From the NCBI RefSeq assembly GCF_058153355.1, contig NZ_CM177019.1: a stretch of DNA of 64,000 nucleotides. One strand, 5' to 3'. Position 1 is the stretch's first letter. Every line of letters begins with the position of its first letter. Under the pieces are notes generated by a model, which made no database searches, was not told the DNA's origin, and saw only the letters and a list, made by a program, of their open reading frames with translations. The position numbers and the translations under genes are program-made. Of this stretch, positions 2,966-62,782 are shown one piece after another.

Positions 2966-4298
<1,333 letters not shown>

Positions 4299-4317: not shown

Positions 4318-4342
4318 ATTCTGCAGACACTGTCTGCAGAAT
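4318..4342. repeat. Perfect 25-bp palindrome ATTCTGCAGAC-ACT-GTCTGCAGAAT between yhcH and the yhcG-like gene
   Basis: Read directly; same GCAGAC-N3-GTCTGC core as the three palindromes at 4829-4932. Confidence 0.9.
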
Positions 4343-4367
4343 TCGAAACCGCTGAAATTAACGGCGT

Positions 4368-5234
4368 CTATAGCCTTCCTCTAGCACCGCCTGTGTTCGA
4401 ACGAGTTCGGCGGTGGAAAAACAGCAGATCGACACGAAACCAGTTGTCATCAATGCGTAACCTTCGCTGCCGACCAACAAAGGCAAAATCATCCCCAAGT
4501 TCCAGCATTAAATCCATCAGGTGATTGATCAGCGCCTCCTCAAAATCGGATTCTGAGTATTCATCTTTCAATTCCAGAAATTCGAGCACAAAGGGATCGC
4601 GTATCGCCTGTTGCGGAAGAATATGCGTCTCGGCAGGAGCGTGTTGTTGCAGCATGGCTGATTTGTCATGTGACAGTAGTGTTCGCTCATAAAATTGGGT
4701 CGCAATTTGCCGCTCTAGCTGGCGGACAGACCAACCACAGCGGAGCGCCTCTTTTTCATAAAAGCTGCGGGCGTCAGCGTTTTTAACGGAAAGTAGACGG
4801 ACGTAGGTGGACCAAGGCAGGGGGAACGATTTGGCAGACAGCGTCTGCCAAATCTTTGCCGATGGGAATTCTGCAGACGGTGTCTGCGGAATTCCCAATG
4901 GTGTTAATTCGCCAGACACTGTCTGGCGAATTTCAACATGTTGAAAAAAGAGGTAAAAAAGCCTCATTTGGCGTAAGTTTTTTGCAGAGAACCCACGCTT
5001 ATACCTTAGACTTAAATCCTTTGATAGTCGCTTGATTAGCTGCGCACCATACGCAGCTCTGGCCTCGCCACCTTGTTCAAATTCGACAATTCGTCGGCCA
5101 ATTTCCCAGTACGTCGCGGTCATCAGCGCGTTAACGCTACGTACCGTTTCCGTTCGGGCGCTATCGACCAGATGAATAATGCCGTCGTGGATTTGCTGGT
5201 AGCCTGCTGTGGTTCCTTCTGAGAGCGATTCCAT
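4368..5234 (-). pseudogene. yhcG: YhcG-like DUF1016 (PD-(D/E)XK nuclease family) gene, apparently 3'-truncated and carrying an in-frame palindrome expansion
   Basis: 288-aa ORF with DUF1016-like N-terminal region (…TYWEIGRRIVE…, …NLRQMRLFY…, IWQTLSAK motif). It stops shortly after VDLLFFH, before the expected catalytic E-x-K segment. Only 69 bp separate its stop from the yhcH stop. Confidence 0.55.
4829..4945. repeat. Cluster of near-perfect palindromes inside the yhcG-like coding sequence (4829-4853, 4864-4896, 4906-4932, plus CAACATGTTG at 4934-4943)
   Basis: Read directly: TTTGGCAGAC-AGC-GTCTGCCAAA; GGGAATTCTGCAGAC-GGT-GTCTGCGGAATTCCC; AATTCGCCAGAC-ACT-GTCTGGCGAATT. Each unit encodes a variant of the IWQTLSAK motif in frame. 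Confidence 0.85.
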
Positions 5235-5417
5235 TATCTTTCCCTTTATATGGCGCAGTGTTGAATAATGGAATCAGCTATACGCCGGGCATCTGCCGGT
5301 AACAATCCAGATGTGCGTATTACATTGGTTTTCTTCAGATTATGCGAGGCGCTTTCCAGAACGAAAGGAGAATTTCAGCGCCGACTCTTTTCTGAGGAGG
5401 CGGCGCTGGGACAGAGC

Positions 5418-6848
<1,431 letters not shown>

Positions 6849-9800
6849 TTACTGCGCCTGCACGCGCAACTCTGCTGCGCTACGACTACGGTGACCCAGC
6901 AGTGCTTTTACATCACTGGACTTCGGTTTAACCAGCGCGAATTTCGTGGCGAAGGTTGACCAGTTCGCCAGAATCTCTTCACCGCGCTGGGAACCGGTAT
7001 GCTGCACATGCTCGGTGATAAGACCACGCAGATGCTCTTCATGGATCGCCAAATCGTCAACGCTTAAGACCTCGACCAGTTCCGGGTTAACGCGTTTGCG
7101 GAAATCGCCGCTTTCATCGAGAACGTAAGCGAAGCCGCCGGTCATGCCCGCGCCGAAGTTAACGCCGGTTTTACCCAGAATACAGACAATACCGCCCGTC
7201 ATATATTCACAGCCGTTGTCGCCAATGCCTTCTACCACGGTGATAGCACCGGAGTTCCGCACGCCGAAACGTTCACCCGCGCGGCCTGCGGCATACAGAC
7301 GACCACCGGTCGCGCCATACAGGCAGGTGTTGCCGATAATGCTTGCTTCATGGCTGCGGAAGGCGGAACCAACCGGAGGACGAATGGCGATTAAGCCGCC
7401 CGCCATGCCTTTACCGACATAGTCGTTGGCATCACCGGTCAGGTACAGTTCCACGCCGCCCGCGTTCCACACACCGAAGCTCTGGCCTGCGGTGCCGTTG
7501 AAGTACGCTTTGATCGGATCGGCTGCCAGACCCTGATCGCCGTGCGTCTGAGCGATATAGCCTGAAAGCGACGCGCCGACAGAACGGTCGGTGTTGCGAA
7601 TATCGAACCAGAAGGTTTTGCTCTGACGCTCATCGACAAACGGTTTTGCCTGTTGCAGCAACTGCGCGTTCAGCAGGCCATTATCAAACGGCGGGTTGTT
7701 TTCGGTACAGTAGAGCGCCTTACCTGGATGCGGCTCGGCAGTCTCCAGCAGCTTCGACAGCGCCAGTTTCTGCTGTTTGGCGGTGAAACCGTCCAGCTCT
7801 TTGAGCAGGTCGGTACGGCCAATCAGATCCACCAGGCGCGTTACGCCCAGTTGCGCCATCAGCTCGCGGGTTTCACGGGCGATAAACTCAAAGTAATTGG
7901 TCACTTTGAACGGCAGGCCGTGATAGTGATTCTTACGCAGCTTGTCATCCTGAGTTGCTACACCGGTGGCGCAGTTGTTCAGATGGCAGATTCGCAGGTA
8001 TTTACAGCCGAGCGCCACCATCGGGCCAGTGCCGAAGCCGAAGCTTTCTGCGCCGAGAATCGCCGCTTTGATGATATCGACACCTGTTTTCAGGCCGCCA
8101 TCGACCTGCAAACGGATCTTATGACGCAAGCCGTTGGCAACCAGCGCCTGTTGTGTTTCAACAAGCCCCAGTTCCCACGGGCAGCCTGCGTATTTCACCG
8201 ATGAAAGCGGACTTGCGCCGGTGCCGCCGTCATAGCCTGCGATGGTGATCAAGTCCGCATAAGCTTTCGCCACGCCAGTCGCGATGGTGCCAACGCCCGG
8301 TTCAGAAACCAGCTTCACGGAGATCATCGCTTTCGGGTTAACCTGCTTGAGGTCGAAAATGAGCTGCGCTAAGTCCTCGATAGAGTAGATATCATGGTGC
8401 GGCGGCGGAGAGATCAGCGTCACTCCGGGCACCGAATAGCGCAGTTTGGCGATGTAAGGAGTGACTTTATCGCCCGGCAACTGACCGCCTTCGCCCGGTT
8501 TCGCGCCCTGGGCGACTTTAATCTGAATGACGTCAGCATTGACCAGGTACGCCGGAGTAACGCCGAAGCGACCAGAAGCCACCTGCTTGATGCGCGACAC
8601 TTTGTTAGTGCCGTAGCGCGCCGGATCTTCACCACCTTCACCGGAGTTCGAGTTACCGCCGATGCTATTCATCGCTTCCGCCAGCGCCTCGTGGGCTTCC
8701 GGGCTTAACGCGCCGATAGACATCGCAGCGGTATCGAAGCGTTTAAACAGTTCGCTTGCCGGTTCAACATCGGCAATGTTGACTGCGTTTTCACCCGGCG
8801 TAATTGCCAGCAGATCGCGCAGCGTGGTTGCCGGACGCTCATTAACCAGCTTCGCGTATTCCTGATAGTCGCTGTACTCGCCGCTTTGTACCGCCTGTTG
8901 CAGTGTGCGCACGACGTCCGGGTTGTAGGCGTGGTATTCGCCACCGTGCACGTATTTCAGCAAGCCGCCCTGGCTGATGGGCTTACGCGCCAGCCAGGCA
9001 CGTTTCGACAGATTCAGCAGATCCTGCTGGAAGTCTTCAAAGCTTGCCCCACCAATGCGGCTAACCGCGCCCTGGAAGCACAGGCCCACTACATCATCGT
9101 GCAGACCGACCGCTTCAAACAGTTTCGAGCCGCGGTAAGACGCGATGGTGGAGATGCCCATTTTGGACATGATTTTGTACAAGCCTTTGTTGATGCCGTT
9201 ACGGTAGTTGAGCATCACGGTACGATAATCTTTGGCAATCGCGTGGGTGTCTACCAGGCGGCCCAGCGTTTCATAGGCCAGGTACGGATAAATAGCCGTC
9301 GCGCCGAAGCCCAGCAACACGGCGAAGTGGTGCGGGTCGCGGGCGCTGGCGGTTTCGACGATGATATTGGCATCGCAACGCAGGCTTTGATCGACCAGAC
9401 GAGTCTGGATCGCGCCAACCGCCATCAGAGCCGGAACCGGCAGGCGATCTTTAGCGATATTCCGGTCAGAAAGCACCAGCAGCACGGTGCCGCTACGCAC
9501 CATCTGCTCTGCTTTGTCGCACAGCTCTTTGACCGTCGCTTCGAGCGTGGTTTTAGTGACGTCAAAGGTGATATCCAGCGTATTTGCGCGGTAGTGCTCC
9601 TCTTTCATCGTCGTGAGCTGTTTGAAATCGGAGTAGAGCAGAATCGGCGATTTAAAGCTTAAACGGTGCGCCTGGCCTTCTGCTTCACAGAAGACGTTCA
9701 TTTCACGCCCGATGCTGGTGGCGAGCGACATAACATGCGCTTCACGTAGCGGGTCGATTGGCGGGTTAGTGACCTGCGCAAACTGCTGGCGGAAGTAGTC

Positions 9801-11309
9801 GTAAATAATGCGCGGCTGGCTGGAGAGCACGGCGAATGGGGTATCATCGCCCATCGAACCGACGGCTTCCTGACCGTTTTCACCCAGTACGCGAATTACG
9901 GAGTCCAGCTCTTCCGCGCTGTAGTTAAACTGTTTCTGGTAGCTGGCAAGTGTGTCGTCGTCCAGTTCGCGGCTACCCACTTCTTCATCGGGCAGATCTT
10001 CAAACGGTACCAGACGGCGGACGTTTTTCTCCATCCACTCTTTATATGGATGGCGGCTTTTCAGATCGTCATCGGTTTCTGCCGAGTGCAGAATACGCCC
10101 ACTGCGGGTGTCGATAACCATTAGTTCGCCTGGCCCCACGCGGCCTTTTTCGACTACTTCGTCAGGCTGATAATCCCAGATACCGACTTCAGAGGCGCAG
10201 GTGATGAGCTTATCTTTGGTGATGACGTAGCGCGCCGGACGCAGACCGTTACGGTCGAGGTTACAGGCAGCAAAACGACCATCGGACATTACGATGCCCG
10301 CCGGGCCATCCCACGGCTCCATATGCATGGAGTTAAAGTCGAAGAACGCGCGCAGCTCCGGGTCCATATCCGGGTTGTTCTGCCAGGCGGGTGGCACTAA
10401 CAGACGCATGGCGCGGATGATATCCATCCCGCCCGCCAGCAGCAGTTCCAGCATGTTATCCATGGAACTGGAGTCAGAGCCGGTTTCGTTGACGAACGGC
10501 GCGGCGTCGTGCAGGTCAGGGATCAGCGGTGTCTGGAATTTATAGGTACGCGCTCGCGCCCATTGGCGGTTACCGGTGATGGTGTTGATTTCACCGTTAT
10601 GCGCCAGGTAGCGGAACGGCTGCGCCAGCGGCCAGCGCGGTACGGTATTAGTGGAGAAGCGCTGGTGGAACAGGCAGATGGCCGATTCCAGACGCAGGTC
10701 CGCGAGGTCCAGGTAGAAGCGCGGCAGATCCGCCGGCATACACAGACCTTTATAGATGTTCACCAGATTCGACAGGCTACAGACGTAGAAGTCTTTGTCA
10801 GCTTCGAGACGCTTTTCAATACGGCGGCGGGCGATAAACAGACGGCGCTCCATATCGCGCGGACGCCAACCTGCCGGGGCGTTCACAAAAATTTGCTCAA
10901 TGCGTGGCAGAGAGGAGAGGGCGATTTCACCCAGCACGCCTTCGTTAGTGGGGACATCACGCCAGCCGACAATCGACAACGTTTCGCGTTGCAGCTCTTC
11001 TTCAACGATGCGGCGTGCGGTCGCGGCGAGTTCAGGATCTTTATTCAGGAAAAGCATCCCGACGGCGTAGTTTTTCGCTAAACGCCAGCCTCGCTCCTGC
11101 GCAACAATGCGAAAAAAGCGATCCGGTTTTTGTAACAGCAAGCCGCAACCGTCACCGGTTTTACCATCGGCGAGAATCGCGCCACGGTGCTGCATGCGGG
11201 CCAGTGCGTGTATTGCAGTACGCACTACCTTGTGGCTAGGTTCGCCTTCTATGTGGGCGATCAGGCCGAAACCACAGTTATCCCTCTCAAGGGATTTATC
11301 GTACAACAT
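6849..11309 (-). CDS. gltB: Glutamate synthase large subunit
   Basis: ORF 6849..11417; conserved start [15 protein letters not shown] (propeptide followed by the amidotransferase Cys) at ATG 11309, giving 1486 aa. Confidence 0.9.
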
Positions 11310-11417
11310 ATCGTGAACCTCCCCCAGGCTCTGCGGGAACCCCACTTCCGAACCGCTGCGCACGGGCACAGAAAGAGCGTGGCGACGGGGTTTGCGTTTC
11401 ATACGCGCGCCTCGCAT

Positions 11418-13009: not shown

Positions 13010-15346
13010 ATGAAGCAAATTCGTCTGCTGGCGCAGTATTATGTTGACCTGATGATGAAGTTAGGTCTGGTGCGCTTCTCAATGTTGCTGGCGCTGGCCC
13101 TCGTCGTTCTTGCCATTGTGGTACAAATGGCAGTGACCATGGTGCTGCATGGTCAGGTCGAAAGCATTGATGTTATTCGTTCTATCTTCTTTGGTTTGCT
13201 GATTACGCCGTGGGCGGTCTACTTTCTATCGGTGGTCGTTGAGCAATTGGAGGAGTCACGACAACGTCTGTCACGGCTGGTGCAAAAACTGGAGGAGATG
13301 CGCGAGCGCGATTTGAGCCTCAACGTTCAGTTAAAAGATAATATTGCCCAGCTAAATCAGGAAATTGCCGTTCGTGAAAAAGCGGAAGCAGAACTGCAGG
13401 AAACCTTCGGCCAACTGAAAATTGAAATTAAAGAGCGCGAAGAGACACAAATTCAGCTCGAGCAGCAATCCTCATTCTTACGTTCCTTCCTTGATGCTTC
13501 ACCCGACCTGGTTTTTTATCGTAACGAAGATAAAGAGTTTTCCGGCTGTAACCGCGCGATGGAGCTGCTGACCGGAAAAAGCGAAAAACAACTGGTTCAT
13601 TTAAAACCTGCTGATGTTTACTCGCCGGAAGCTGCCGCGAAAGTTATTGAAACCGATGAAAAAGTATTTCGTCATAATGTGTCTCTGACCTATGAACAGT
13701 GGTTGGATTATCCCGACGGACGCAAAGCCTGCTTTGAAATCCGTAAAGTGCCGTACTATGACCGCGTGGGTAAACGTCACGGTTTAATGGGTTTTGGTCG
13801 CGACATTACCGAGCGTAAGCGGTATCAGGATGCGCTTGAACGCGCCAGCCGCGACAAAACGACGTTTATCTCCACCATCAGTCACGAATTGCGTACACCG
13901 CTGAACGGTATCGTCGGCCTGAGCCGCATTTTGCTGGATACTGAACTTACCGCTGAGCAGGAAAAATATCTCAAAACAATCCATGTTTCGGCCGTCACGC
14001 TGGGGAATATCTTCAACGATATTATTGACATGGATAAGATGGAGCGGCGCAAGGTCCAGCTTGATAATCAGCCAGTTGATTTCACCAGCTTCCTTGCCGA
14101 TCTGGAAAATCTCTCCGCATTGCAGGCGCAACAGAAAGGGTTGCGCTTTAATCTGGAACCGACGCTGCCATTACCGCATCAGGTCATTACTGATGGGACG
14201 CGTTTACGGCAGATCCTGTGGAACCTCATCAGTAACGCCGTCAAATTTACCCAGCAGGGCCAGGTTACCGTGCGCGTGCGCTACGATGAAGGCGATATGC
14301 TGCATTTTGAAGTGGAAGACTCTGGTATCGGCATTCCGCAGGATGAGCTGGATAAAATCTTCGCCATGTATTACCAGGTGAAAGACAGTCATGGCGGTAA
14401 ACCTGCCACTGGCACCGGTATTGGTCTGGCCGTTTCTCGTCGTCTGGCGAAAAATATGGGCGGCGATATTACGGTTACCAGCGAACAGGGCAAAGGTTCA
14501 ACCTTTACGTTGACGATCCACGCACCGTCGGTAGCAGAAGAGGTTGATGATGCGTTTGATGAAGACGATATGCCTTTACCGGCGCTGAATGTGCTGCTGG
14601 TGGAAGACATTGAACTGAACGTGATTGTCGCACGCTCTGTGCTGGAAAAATTAGGTAACAGCGTTGATGTCGCCATGACCGGCAAGGCGGCGCTGGAGAT
14701 GTTTAAACCGGGCGAATACGACCTGGTGTTGCTGGATATTCAGTTGCCAGATATGACCGGGCTGGATATCTCTCGTGAACTGACGAAGCGTTATCCGCGC
14801 GAGGATTTACCGCCGCTGGTGGCCTTAACCGCTAACGTGCTGAAAGACAAACAAGAGTACCTCAATGCTGGAATGGATGATGTGCTGAGTAAGCCGCTTT
14901 CTGTTCCGGCGCTAACCGCGATGATCAAGAAATTCTGGGATACCCAGGATGATGAGGAGAGTACGGTGACGACAGAAGAGAACAGTAAATCAGAAGCATT
15001 GCTCGATATTCCCATGCTGGAACAGTATCTCGAACTTGTAGGACCGAAGCTGATCACCGATGGGTTAGCGGTGTTTGAGAAGATGATGCCGGGATATGTC
15101 AGCGTGCTGGAGTCGAATCTGACGGCGCAGGATAAAAAAGGCATTGTTGAGGAAGGACATAAAATTAAAGGTGCGGCGGGGTCAGTGGGGTTACGCCATC
15201 TGCAACAGCTGGGTCAGCAAATTCAGTCTCCTGACCTTCCAGCCTGGGAAGATAACGTCGGTGAATGGATTGAAGAGATGAAAGAAGAGTGGCGTCACGA
15301 CGTAGAAGTACTGAAAGCGTGGGTGGCAAAAGCTACTAAAAAATGA
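13010..15346 (+). CDS. arcB: Aerobic respiration control sensor histidine kinase (hybrid kinase with receiver and HPt domains)
   Basis: 778-aa ORF; N-terminal TM segments, H-box (SHELRTPLN), receiver domain and C-terminal HPt; adjacent to ArcZ. Confidence 0.95.
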   Translation: MKQIRLLAQYYVDLMMKLGLVRFSMLLALALVVLAIVVQMAVTMVLHGQVESIDVIRSIFFGLLITPWAVYFLSVVVEQLEESRQRLSRLVQKLEEMRERDLSLNVQLKDNIAQLNQEIAVREKAEAELQETFGQLKIEIKEREETQIQLEQQSSFLRSFLDASPDLVFYRNEDKEFSGCNRAMELLTGKSEKQLVHLKPADVYSPEAAAKVIETDEKVFRHNVSLTYEQWLDYPDGRKACFEIRKVPYYDRVGKRHGLMGFGRDITERKRYQDALERASRDKTTFISTISHELRTPLNGIVGLSRILLDTELTAEQEKYLKTIHVSAVTLGNIFNDIIDMDKMERRKVQLDNQPVDFTSFLADLENLSALQAQQKGLRFNLEPTLPLPHQVITDGTRLRQILWNLISNAVKFTQQGQVTVRVRYDEGDMLHFEVEDSGIGIPQDELDKIFAMYYQVKDSHGGKPATGTGIGLAVSRRLAKNMGGDITVTSEQGKGSTFTLTIHAPSVAEEVDDAFDEDDMPLPALNVLLVEDIELNVIVARSVLEKLGNSVDVAMTGKAALEMFKPGEYDLVLLDIQLPDMTGLDISRELTKRYPREDLPPLVALTANVLKDKQEYLNAGMDDVLSKPLSVPALTAMIKKFWDTQDDEESTVTTEENSKSEALLDIPMLEQYLELVGPKLITDGLAVFEKMMPGYVSVLESNLTAQDKKGIVEEGHKIKGAAGSVGLRHLQQLGQQIQSPDLPAWEDNVGEWIEEMKEEWRHDVEVLKAWVAKATKK

Positions 15347-35453: not shown

Positions 35454-35460
35454 TCAGCTA

Positions 35461-61314: not shown

Positions 61315-61322
61315 TTGAACGA

Positions 61323-61347
61323 GCCGGATGAGCAGTTTTCATCCGGC
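61323..61347. terminator. Hairpin between mtr and the convergent 176-aa ORF
   Basis: GCCGGATGA-GCAGTTT-TCATCCGGC; no strong T-run, possibly bidirectional. Confidence 0.5.
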
Positions 61348-61373
61348 AATATTCCATAGTGCGCGCGAGGTAA

Positions 61374-61904
61374 TCAAATATATCCTTGTTTATTATAAAG
61401 TTCTTCGGCAAGTGCTTCCCCATGTTCATCGAAAAATGCATTGGCGATCTTTAAATTATTCTCCTCAGGATTTGCCGTTATCCTGCTACCATTGGAATCA
61501 AATTCGAGCGCGATGGCGATCTCCGACCCCCACCAGTAATCATAAATTAGCGCAAAATTATTTTCCCCTGGCGTAATAAATTTCTCGATGCCTCGCACAC
61601 AGGCCATGAGTGGTATGAAGATTTCATAGCTCTCTGAGAGAAATATATGATCCATCGTGACTATCTGTGTTTCTTTATTAAAGTTGATATGTTCGGCATA
61701 AATATTCTTTTCACTTTCACCAGAATTACAAGCTGCAAGATTGTTAAGCATTTTTGCAGGATCGCCGTACAACCGCTGCTTCTCGATAAACCATGGCAAC
61801 CAGTCGTCATGGTCTTTGATATTTGTTGCTGGTGAATGGAAAAACTTCTCGAGGTTACTCTCGGTAATATGTGTATGAAGAAAAAAGGAAGCCGGTTCAC
61901 TCAT
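61374..61904 (-). CDS. Hypothetical protein (176 aa), no recognisable domain; first gene of the AT-rich islet between mtr and yhbW
   Basis: Uninterrupted ORF in AT-rich DNA with a plausible start context; no signal peptide seen; Trp/Tyr-rich (IYDYWWGSEIAIALEFD). Confidence 0.55.
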   Translation of the reverse strand: MSEPASFFLHTHITESNLEKFFHSPATNIKDHDDWLPWFIEKQRLYGDPAKMLNNLAACNSGESEKNIYAEHINFNKETQIVTMDHIFLSESYEIFIPLMACVRGIEKFITPGENNFALIYDYWWGSEIAIALEFDSNGSRITANPEENNLKIANAFFDEHGEALAEELYNKQGYI

Positions 61905-62062
61905 AATGATTTTCTCTGGTAATAAGTCGATTTGTTCATTTCTCTGTTTGGCGATGATAAAACGATGACTATTTTATAAAAGTACAGAACTGGACCTTTC
62001 ATCTATTTCCTATCATAGGAAAATATATACTTGAACTGGATCAGAATAAGCGGAATACGAAA

Positions 62063-62782
62063 ATGGGGTGTAAAGGATTACTCGCTATTGTATTGTTGAG
62101 CCTGTTTATCGCTTTTATTTTAAAAATTTTCTGGCCCACCCCGCACGATGAACATCTTTTCCTGCCCGTTGAAAAACCTTTCGTATCGTCTTTAAAAATC
62201 ATTCGCCCCGGCGACCAGTTATTTATCCGCATTCTGAAAGCGGAAGATAAGCTGGAACTGTGGGCAAGCATCAACAACAAGCCTTACGAACTCTATAAAA
62301 CCTGGACTATATGCGCGTGGTCTGGTGGCTTAGGGCCAAAACACAAACAGGGGGATGGTAAAAGCCCGGAAGGTTTTTATGCCACCAACAAAGGGTTGCT
62401 TAACCCAAACAGCCGCTATCATCTGGCATTTAATATTGGTTACCCGAATGCTTACGATCGGGCAAACGGCTACACCGGTGATTTCATTATGGTTCACGGA
62501 AACTGCGTTTCGGCGGGCTGCTATGCCATGACCGATGCTGGTATTGAAGAGATTTATCAACTGGTGGCGCAGGCGCTGAATAGCGGACAGAAGAGCGTGC
62601 CGGTGCATATCTTCCCGTTTGCGATGAACGACGAAAATATGCGCCAGGCGCAGGCATGGCCGGAATATAATTTCTGGCGTATGTTGAAGCCCGGCTATGA
62701 TTACTTTGAAAAAAATCGCCGATTGCCAACCATCAACGTTGAAAACCGGCGTTATAAAATCAGCCCAACAACTCTTCCTTAA
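62063..62782 (+). CDS. YafK/DpaA-like L,D-transpeptidase-fold (YkuD) protein with N-terminal membrane anchor or signal
   Basis: 239-aa ORF; hydrophobic N-terminus ([18 protein letters not shown]); YkuD catalytic signature [14 protein letters not shown] (His … Ser-x-Gly-Cys) and YafK-like motifs [32 protein letters not shown]. Confidence 0.65.

Follow-up and report, generated by a model that had tools for sequence, protein, structure and literature searches.

In Escherichia coli K-12, the chromosomal interval between the gltBD and nan operons carries the yhc operon, which is assigned to the beta class of chaperone-usher systems (clade beta of Nuccio & Baumler; Korea et al. 2010, as cited in PMC5216030). 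A survey of E. coli fimbriae described the Yhc type as "highly under-represented" and "sporadic" (Wurpel et al., PMC3559732), and the beta-class yhc locus was reported only in phylogroup A, in a study that counts gltF as a putative structural subunit (Del Canto et al., PMC5216030). The interval also contains yhcG, a member of the DUF1016 family. The PD-(D/E)XK motif of this family has been described as E-D-E(I/L/V)K (PMC1189080), and DUF1016 genes have been reported beside restriction-modification loci (PMC9881135).

The 64-kb stretch of DNA analyzed here (the window) lacks gltF and the fimbrial genes, and gltD is followed directly by a yhcG-like gene. A sequence-only reading of the window had attributed this to the loss of about 6-7 kb from a deletion-prone segment. 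The analysis described below indicates instead that the arrangement was probably inherited as an existing haplotype, and not created by a deletion in this genome's own history.

Gene order at the gltD–nanQ interval

The window begins inside nanA and reads on the strand opposite to the usual K-12 display, such that nanT, nanE, nanK and nanQ lie on the plus strand, ending at 4298, and converge on yhcG and gltBD. The genes and the spacer that define the interval are as follows.

3834-4298, plus strand: nanQ (yhcH), the final gene of the nan operon and the conserved anchor on the far side of the variable interval.
4368-5234, minus strand: yhcG-like open reading frame of 288 aa, a pseudogene (translation and ORF list).
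5235-5417, no strand assigned: gltD–yhcG spacer of 183 bp, the standard spacer of the haplotype that has only yhcG in the interval (yhcG-only).
5418-6836, minus strand: gltD, glutamate synthase small subunit, intact, 472 aa (ORF list, tblastn and RefSeq annotation of matching E. coli records).
6849-11417, minus strand: gltB, glutamate synthase large subunit, intact (ORF list and tblastn).

The glutamate synthase operon is complete and its gene order is kept, with GltD sharing 99.6% aa identity with its K-12 counterpart over the full length and GltB sharing 99.5% over 1,486 aa (tblastn). The gltD stop codon begins at 5418 and the yhcG-like start codon finishes at 5234, leaving a gap of exactly 183 bp, as the sequence-only reading had counted from the letters and the ORF list. 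The K-12 order that it had given (gltB-gltD-gltF-yhcA-yhcD-yhcE-yhcF-yhcG-yhcH-nanK) matches the MG1655 annotation, and the reported absence of gltF and yhcADEF from the junction was borne out: nothing other than the 183 bp lies there, and tblastn searches detected no homologue of gltF, yhcA, yhcD or yhcF in the whole 64-kb window. In particular, the K-12 YhcD query found no match at E <= 1e-3 that could represent an usher (PapC_N/Usher/PapC_C), and neither the PapD-like chaperone YhcA nor the DUF1120 proteins GltF and YhcF had a tblastn match in the window. With usher, chaperone and subunits all absent, the locus falls outside the class of Yhc fimbrial loci.

The gltF gene, described as a regulator in the sequence-only reading, is not an established one. 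The annotation of its product is that of a periplasmic DUF1120 protein resembling fimbrial subunits, and the gene is the first of the yhc cluster. Goss and colleagues reportedly found in 2001 that gltF is dispensable for nitrogen regulation, and the gene is said to be absent downstream of gltD in Klebsiella aerogenes. For annotation purposes, gltF is best grouped with the yhc fimbrial cluster and not with gltBD.

The best E. coli matches to the window are 98.3% identical at the locus and 99.3% identical over 20 kb, and outside the interval the window is otherwise colinear with K-12 at about 97% identity. Two further differences from K-12 were seen. A 1.45-kb segment (61316-62763) lies between mtr and yhbW, where K-12 has about 120 bp; it includes a 239-aa ORF (62063-62782, plus strand) with a weak match to the YkuD L,D-transpeptidase domain (E = 2e-6), and its opposite strand has an ORF of 176 aa. 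At about 35456-35460, some 150 bp of the K-12 dacB–obgE gap are absent, possibly a REP-type element.

The 183-bp spacer compared with the K-12 junction

Comparison of the spacer with K-12 resolved it into two parts, the first of which contains a hairpin.

5362-5415, no strand assigned: 54 bp adjoining the gltD stop, without a K-12 counterpart (blastn boundaries and alignment).
5376-5408, minus strand: GC-rich hairpin CAGCGCCG…CGGCGCTG followed by a U-rich stretch, 13 nt past the gltD stop.
5235-5361, minus strand: 127-bp yhcG upstream region, held in common, in diverged form, with the K-12 yhcF–yhcG spacer.

The blastn alignment to K-12 confirmed a K-12-only segment, 7,080 bp long (locus L002, 6620-13699), of which IS5 accounts for 1.2 kb and the remainder for 5.9 kb. 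This segment stands where the window has the 54 bp at 5362-5415. The limits of homology lie 2 bp beyond the stop codon of gltD and 57 bp beyond that of yhcF, and the two haplotypes are unrelated from the gltD stop to a point 127 bp upstream of yhcG. Alignment of the 54-bp segment with K-12 returned only chance matches of 9-10 nt. Because these 54 bp have no K-12 counterpart, no simple deletion of K-12 DNA can give the junction found in the window. The spacer is also 183 bp long in the two E. coli loci inspected (L001 and L062), and all of it, including the 54 bp, aligns end to end with sequences from Escherichia sp. E1V33, E. whittamii, the E. albertii type strain and Pseudocitrobacter vendiensis. 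The short direct repeats that the sequence-only reading had suggested might be found at the junction were looked for at the boundaries, and there were none. Likewise, the window spacer contains no IS, IS remnant or K-12-type remnant of the kind that an IS-mediated deletion would leave as a scar. On the K-12 side, the extra segment has no annotated integrase, no tRNA and no boundary repeats, and its G+C content of 43%, compared with 57% for gltBD, is the sole trait that it has in common with classical genomic islands.

The gltD-proximal hairpin is a putative terminator of the gltBD operon in the yhcG-only haplotype. It was not called by a simple terminator scan, and the 81-nt fold that includes it has a predicted energy of -23.2 kcal/mol with a z-score of only -1.8. 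The hairpin is kept in P. faecalis even though this species has neither the yhc cluster nor yhcG. The remaining 127 bp presumably carry the promoter and ribosome-binding site of yhcG; together with the adjoining part of the gene (4408-5361), this region is 94.4% identical to K-12 overall (blastn), with identity falling in the upstream part (alignment). A scan of the window spacer called no consensus promoter or terminator, and no Rfam family was found in it, the sole match being to a chance miRNA model (E = 0.9) located inside yhcG.

The yhcG-only arrangement is the most common one in E. coli

A total of 5,426 complete E. coli genomes were sorted by BLAST coverage into classes, some of them obtained by subtraction, and the resulting counts are not phylogeny-aware. 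The plurality state, found in about 2,420 of the 5,426 genomes (∼45%), has gltD and yhcG in one contiguous place. The K-12 gltF–yhcADEF cluster reaches >=80% coverage in 1,120 genomes (∼21%), and 1,293 show some match to it; the approximately 170 genomes that make up the difference match only in part or over a few tens of bases. Essentially all matches to the K-12 cluster across the 5,426 genomes are >=99% identical. In another 947 genomes (∼17%), for example ST131 EC958, gltD directly adjoins nanQ and yhcG is lacking. Most of the remaining genomes, as estimated by subtraction and an evenly spaced listing, resemble E. coli B, in which yhcG is cut off beside a transposase remnant. The yhcG-only arrangement is probably that of most non-A E. 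coli, with the phylogroup assignment taken from the literature.

Taken together with the published surveys, these counts establish that absence of gltF-yhcADEF is the majority state in E. coli and one that was already documented. In K-12, gltD does not adjoin yhcG, and it does so in a large share of other E. coli; the window has the commonest layout of the species, and K-12, with its additional cryptic fimbrial operon, belongs to the minority. The K-12 gene order should therefore not be taken as the default here, and genes that are absent relative to K-12 are not for that reason deleted.

Variation is also seen nearby at dcuC/dcuD between sspB and nanR. This gene is absent from EC958 (L003, 6352-6460), present in E. 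coli B (L004, 264-2054), and a pseudogene with an internal stop in Z0117EC0005 (L001, 1-525).

yhcG carries a lineage-specific deletion

The sequence-only reading was correct in calling yhcG truncated, and the lesion was mapped by blastn to a single position.

4408/4409, no strand assigned: junction of a 250-bp deletion inside yhcG, corresponding to missing positions 6110-6359 of L001, with 1-bp microhomology.

The deletion shifts the reading frame, such that 276-277 native residues, finishing at ...FRVDLLFFHRR, are followed by a frameshifted tail; the original stop codon would be at 4358-4360. Up to residue ∼277, the product is 99% identical to full-length YhcG. The DUF1016 N-terminal domain is readily detected (PF17761, E = 7e-44), and the nuclease domain YhcG_C (PF06250) is represented only by positions 1-71 of 157. 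The VDLK sequence that forms the (D/E)xK element in full-length orthologues is lost, and the truncated protein is presumably inactive. None of the best-ranked among 3,711 E. coli matches to the region has the deletion, all of them being split by it into two pieces, and the exact 288-aa product was found on just one other contig in the gene index. Judged from these comparisons, the deletion is private to this lineage, and yhcG of this genome should carry a pseudogene annotation. The full-length orthologue from L001 matches the PADLOC candidate PDC-S02 (E = 9.3e-136), of which the window has a truncated copy, making intact YhcG a candidate anti-phage defence system.

Alternative cargo at the same site in other Enterobacteriaceae

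An outgroup scan anchored on NanQ retrieved the locus from 43 Enterobacteriaceae species representatives, and none of the 43 has GltF, YhcA, YhcD or YhcF homologues at the site. The order gltD–yhcG–nanQ was found in several Escherichia species, Pseudocitrobacter vendiensis and Citrobacter amalonaticus, and yhcG, whole or in fragments, lies at the site in these as well as in C. gillenii and Salmonella arizonae/diarizonae. In most genera (Citrobacter, Enterobacter, Lelliottia, Kluyvera, Trabulsiella and Siccibacter), gltD and nanQ are 43-110 bp apart, and the gap holds either a canonical terminator of the bidirectional type or a REP-like sequence. Other cargo, about 3 kb in length, lies between nanQ and gltD in several Citrobacter, in Salmonella arizonae/diarizonae and in Enterobacter pulveris (L047); the loci with such cargo are L013, L015, L018, L024, L025, L026, L028, L038 and L047.

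A protein search with YhcD located related clusters in additional genomes. Some E. albertii have a gltF-yhcADEF-like cluster between gltD and nanQ without yhcG, and their usher is 82% identical to that of K-12. In E. marmotae, the usher of a similar cluster is 67% identical and a yhcG remnant lies downstream, which is the K-12 architecture. All of these clusters (L063-L068) occupy the same site in the same orientation as in K-12. More distant clusters (56-57%) adjoin gltD in a Citrobacter (L069) and a Kluyvera (L071), where they have the opposite orientation, and a related cluster in Klebsiella oxytoca (L072) is found at an unrelated, corA–rarD-like site. In the Citrobacter locus L069, the other cargo of the interval is an amidohydrolase plus a cytosine/purine permease pair.

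In the generally accepted view, E. marmotae is a closer relative of E. coli than is E. albertii. The greater divergence of its usher is therefore out of step with the species tree, and suggests that alleles were transferred between lineages rather than simply passed on by descent. The presence of yhc-like clusters at the same site in other Escherichia indicates that the arrangement with both the cluster and yhcG is old as well. The idea that the K-12 cluster is a recent insertion in phylogroup A was considered and is weakened by the usher homologues at this site in E. albertii and E. marmotae. The interval between gltD and nanQ is an old hotspot of variation that can hold alternative cargo, and the range of arrangements found supports the earlier suggestion of a variable segment between two core operons.

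Palindromes are associated with breakpoints in yhcG

Four copies of a short palindrome family were found in the interval.

4318-4342, no strand assigned: perfect palindrome of 25 nt, ATTCTGCAGACACTGTCTGCAGAAT, located where nanQ and yhcG converge, with a fold of -19.4 kcal/mol.
4829-4853, 4868-4892 and 4907-4931, no strand assigned: three in-frame palindrome copies in yhcG, 39 bp apart, forming a block at 4829-4931.

The copy at 4318-4342 is likely to act as a bidirectional terminator. Members of the family are perfect palindromes of 25-27 nt with the form A(A)TTnnnCAGACnnnGTCTGnnnAAT(T), and each internal yhcG copy encodes an I-x-Q-T-x-S-x-(E/K) unit. A pattern search returned 4 matches in the window against 0.00 expected; Tandem Repeats Finder did not report the 39-bp array. 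Across the loci compared, eight arm variants were seen, all of them perfectly self-complementary, and the copy number varies among yhcG orthologues. K-12, the B2-type strains and E. marmotae have an additional copy directly after gltD. The B2 palindrome is identical at 27 of 27 positions to the third internal yhcG copy, and the B2 spacer consists of the nanQ-side flank, the palindrome, and the gltD-side flank of K-12.

Several losses of yhcG sequence have an endpoint at one of these palindromes. A deletion in the E. albertii type strain joins the downstream palindrome to internal copy 2 (L011, 10485-10550), yhcG of E. coli B is cut off at the edge of copy 1 (L004, ∼8000-8025), derivatives carrying IS1 break inside copy 1 (L075, ∼5930-5960), and an internal yhcG deletion in E. 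marmotae ends at the edge of copy 3 (L066, ∼14130-14160). Two diverged Citrobacter cases appear to end at copy 2, where alignment ends are less reliable at ∼70-75% identity. The 250-bp deletion of the window does not involve the palindromes.

These coincidences are suggestive of palindromes that make the segment fragile, and it is in this sense that the "deletion-prone" label holds: yhcG has been truncated or lost many times independently, and the label fails for the absence of the fimbrial cluster from the window. A broader proposal would be that gltD–nanQ is an ancient, trans-species cassette hotspot whose turnover is driven in part by the palindromes associated with yhcG, with recombination, slippage or IS targeting at the palindromes as the route. 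We consider this proposal tentative and rather doubtful. If true, it would explain at least four independent endpoints (E. albertii type strain, E. coli B type, IS1 derivatives and E. marmotae), as well as the palindrome retained at the "empty" B2 site. The association between palindromes and breakpoints is the sole part of this locus that may merit follow-up, as a possible case of short palindromes shaping gene loss.

Origin of the window junction

The yhcG-only arrangement is the commonest in E. coli and is common to other Escherichia, and the absence of the operon from the window therefore probably reflects the content of an inherited haplotype. The window would then represent one of at least four long-standing alternative arrangements between the convergent gltBD and nan operons, in this case running from gltD through a 183-bp spacer that has a hairpin of its own to yhcG, and on through a palindromic hairpin to nanQ. 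Such haplotypes would presumably be exchanged among lineages when the core genes on either side undergo homologous recombination; both this mode of spread and any direction given to the ancient events are inferred.

The alternative that survives best places a deletion far in the past. If the cluster and yhcG were ancestral in Escherichia, the yhcG-only form could have arisen once by loss of the cluster and then been inherited or recombined. This would account for the deeply diverged yhc-like clusters at the same site in three Escherichia species and for the yhcG upstream region of K-12 and E. marmotae, which runs on directly from the yhcF terminator. The related clusters adjoining gltD in one Citrobacter and one Kluyvera would also fit, but they are inverted relative to K-12. 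Moreover, the usher identities (82% in E. albertii, 67% in E. marmotae) do not follow the species tree, and the low G+C content of the cluster (43% versus 57% for gltBD) sets it apart from its neighbors. The yhcG-only spacer, gltD-proximal hairpin included, extends to Pseudocitrobacter, and the hairpin persists in P. faecalis, which has neither gene set; these features also speak against loss of a cluster as the source of the spacer. We regard an ancient deletion as unlikely.

A recent deletion, in which one event of 6-7 kb would have removed a gltF-yhcADEF cluster of the K-12 type from the lineage of the window, as the sequence-only reading had proposed, is effectively excluded. The K-12 cluster does occupy exactly this site, the yhcG gene of the window is itself partly deleted, and genuine deletions of the K-12 cluster occur in E. 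coli. However, in the known examples, PSJ-32-1 and MS15047, gltD is still followed by K-12-type sequence (177 or 82 bp), next to which come IS1 and a yhcG without its N-terminus (L075, 5001-5950; L076, 5001-5850), whereas the window has neither the K-12-type sequence nor IS1. It has no boundary repeat or other IS, its 54 bp adjoining gltD are unrelated to K-12 sequence, and the same arrangement is found base for base in the ∼2,420 E. coli genomes described above and in other Escherichia. An assembly or scaffolding artefact that collapsed the interval can be dismissed, since no point was found in its favor, the junction region is 100% identical over 6,867 bp in the independent Logan assembly SRR31441161, and the same junction recurs in thousands of complete genomes.

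With inheritance of an existing haplotype as the preferred explanation, the only event specific to this lineage would be the 250-bp frameshifting deletion that converted yhcG to a pseudogene.

Comparison with known arrangements

The closest arrangement to that of the window is the yhcG-only form of Z0117EC0005, O157:H7 and O103/O111 E. coli, which has the same gltB-gltD pair, 183-bp spacer, yhcG and nanQ at 97.6-98.6% nucleotide identity. The difference lies in yhcG, which is full-length (375 aa) in these strains and disrupted by the private 250-bp deletion in the window. Within the YhcG/DUF1016 family of PD-(D/E)XK proteins (COG4804, PF06250), the window copy keeps DUF1016_N together with the first half of the nuclease domain, but the (D/E)xK part of the motif is missing.

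K-12 shares the chromosomal interval and the flanking gltD and yhcG genes with the window. Between them it has gltF-yhcA-yhcD-yhcE(IS5-interrupted)-yhcF, which the window lacks, and the sequence right after gltD differs from that of the window and includes a palindrome of the yhcG-associated family. The B2-type arrangement (ST131 EC958) resembles the window in having the same core flanks without gltF-yhcADEF, but yhcG is absent as well, whereas the window keeps a truncated copy. Its gltD–nanQ spacer is 67 bp long with a single palindrome, and the 40 bp adjoining gltD are 97.5% identical to K-12. E. coli B/BL21 and the IS1 derivatives are like the window in combining a damaged yhcG with the absence of the fimbrial cluster. 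However, they have a transposase remnant or IS1 at the breakpoint, on the yhcG palindrome block, whereas the deletion in the window is IS-free and lies elsewhere in the gene. The locus is a compact example of a hotspot between two core operons, which may be empty or may hold alternative cargo in the form of a fimbrial operon or a candidate defence nuclease.
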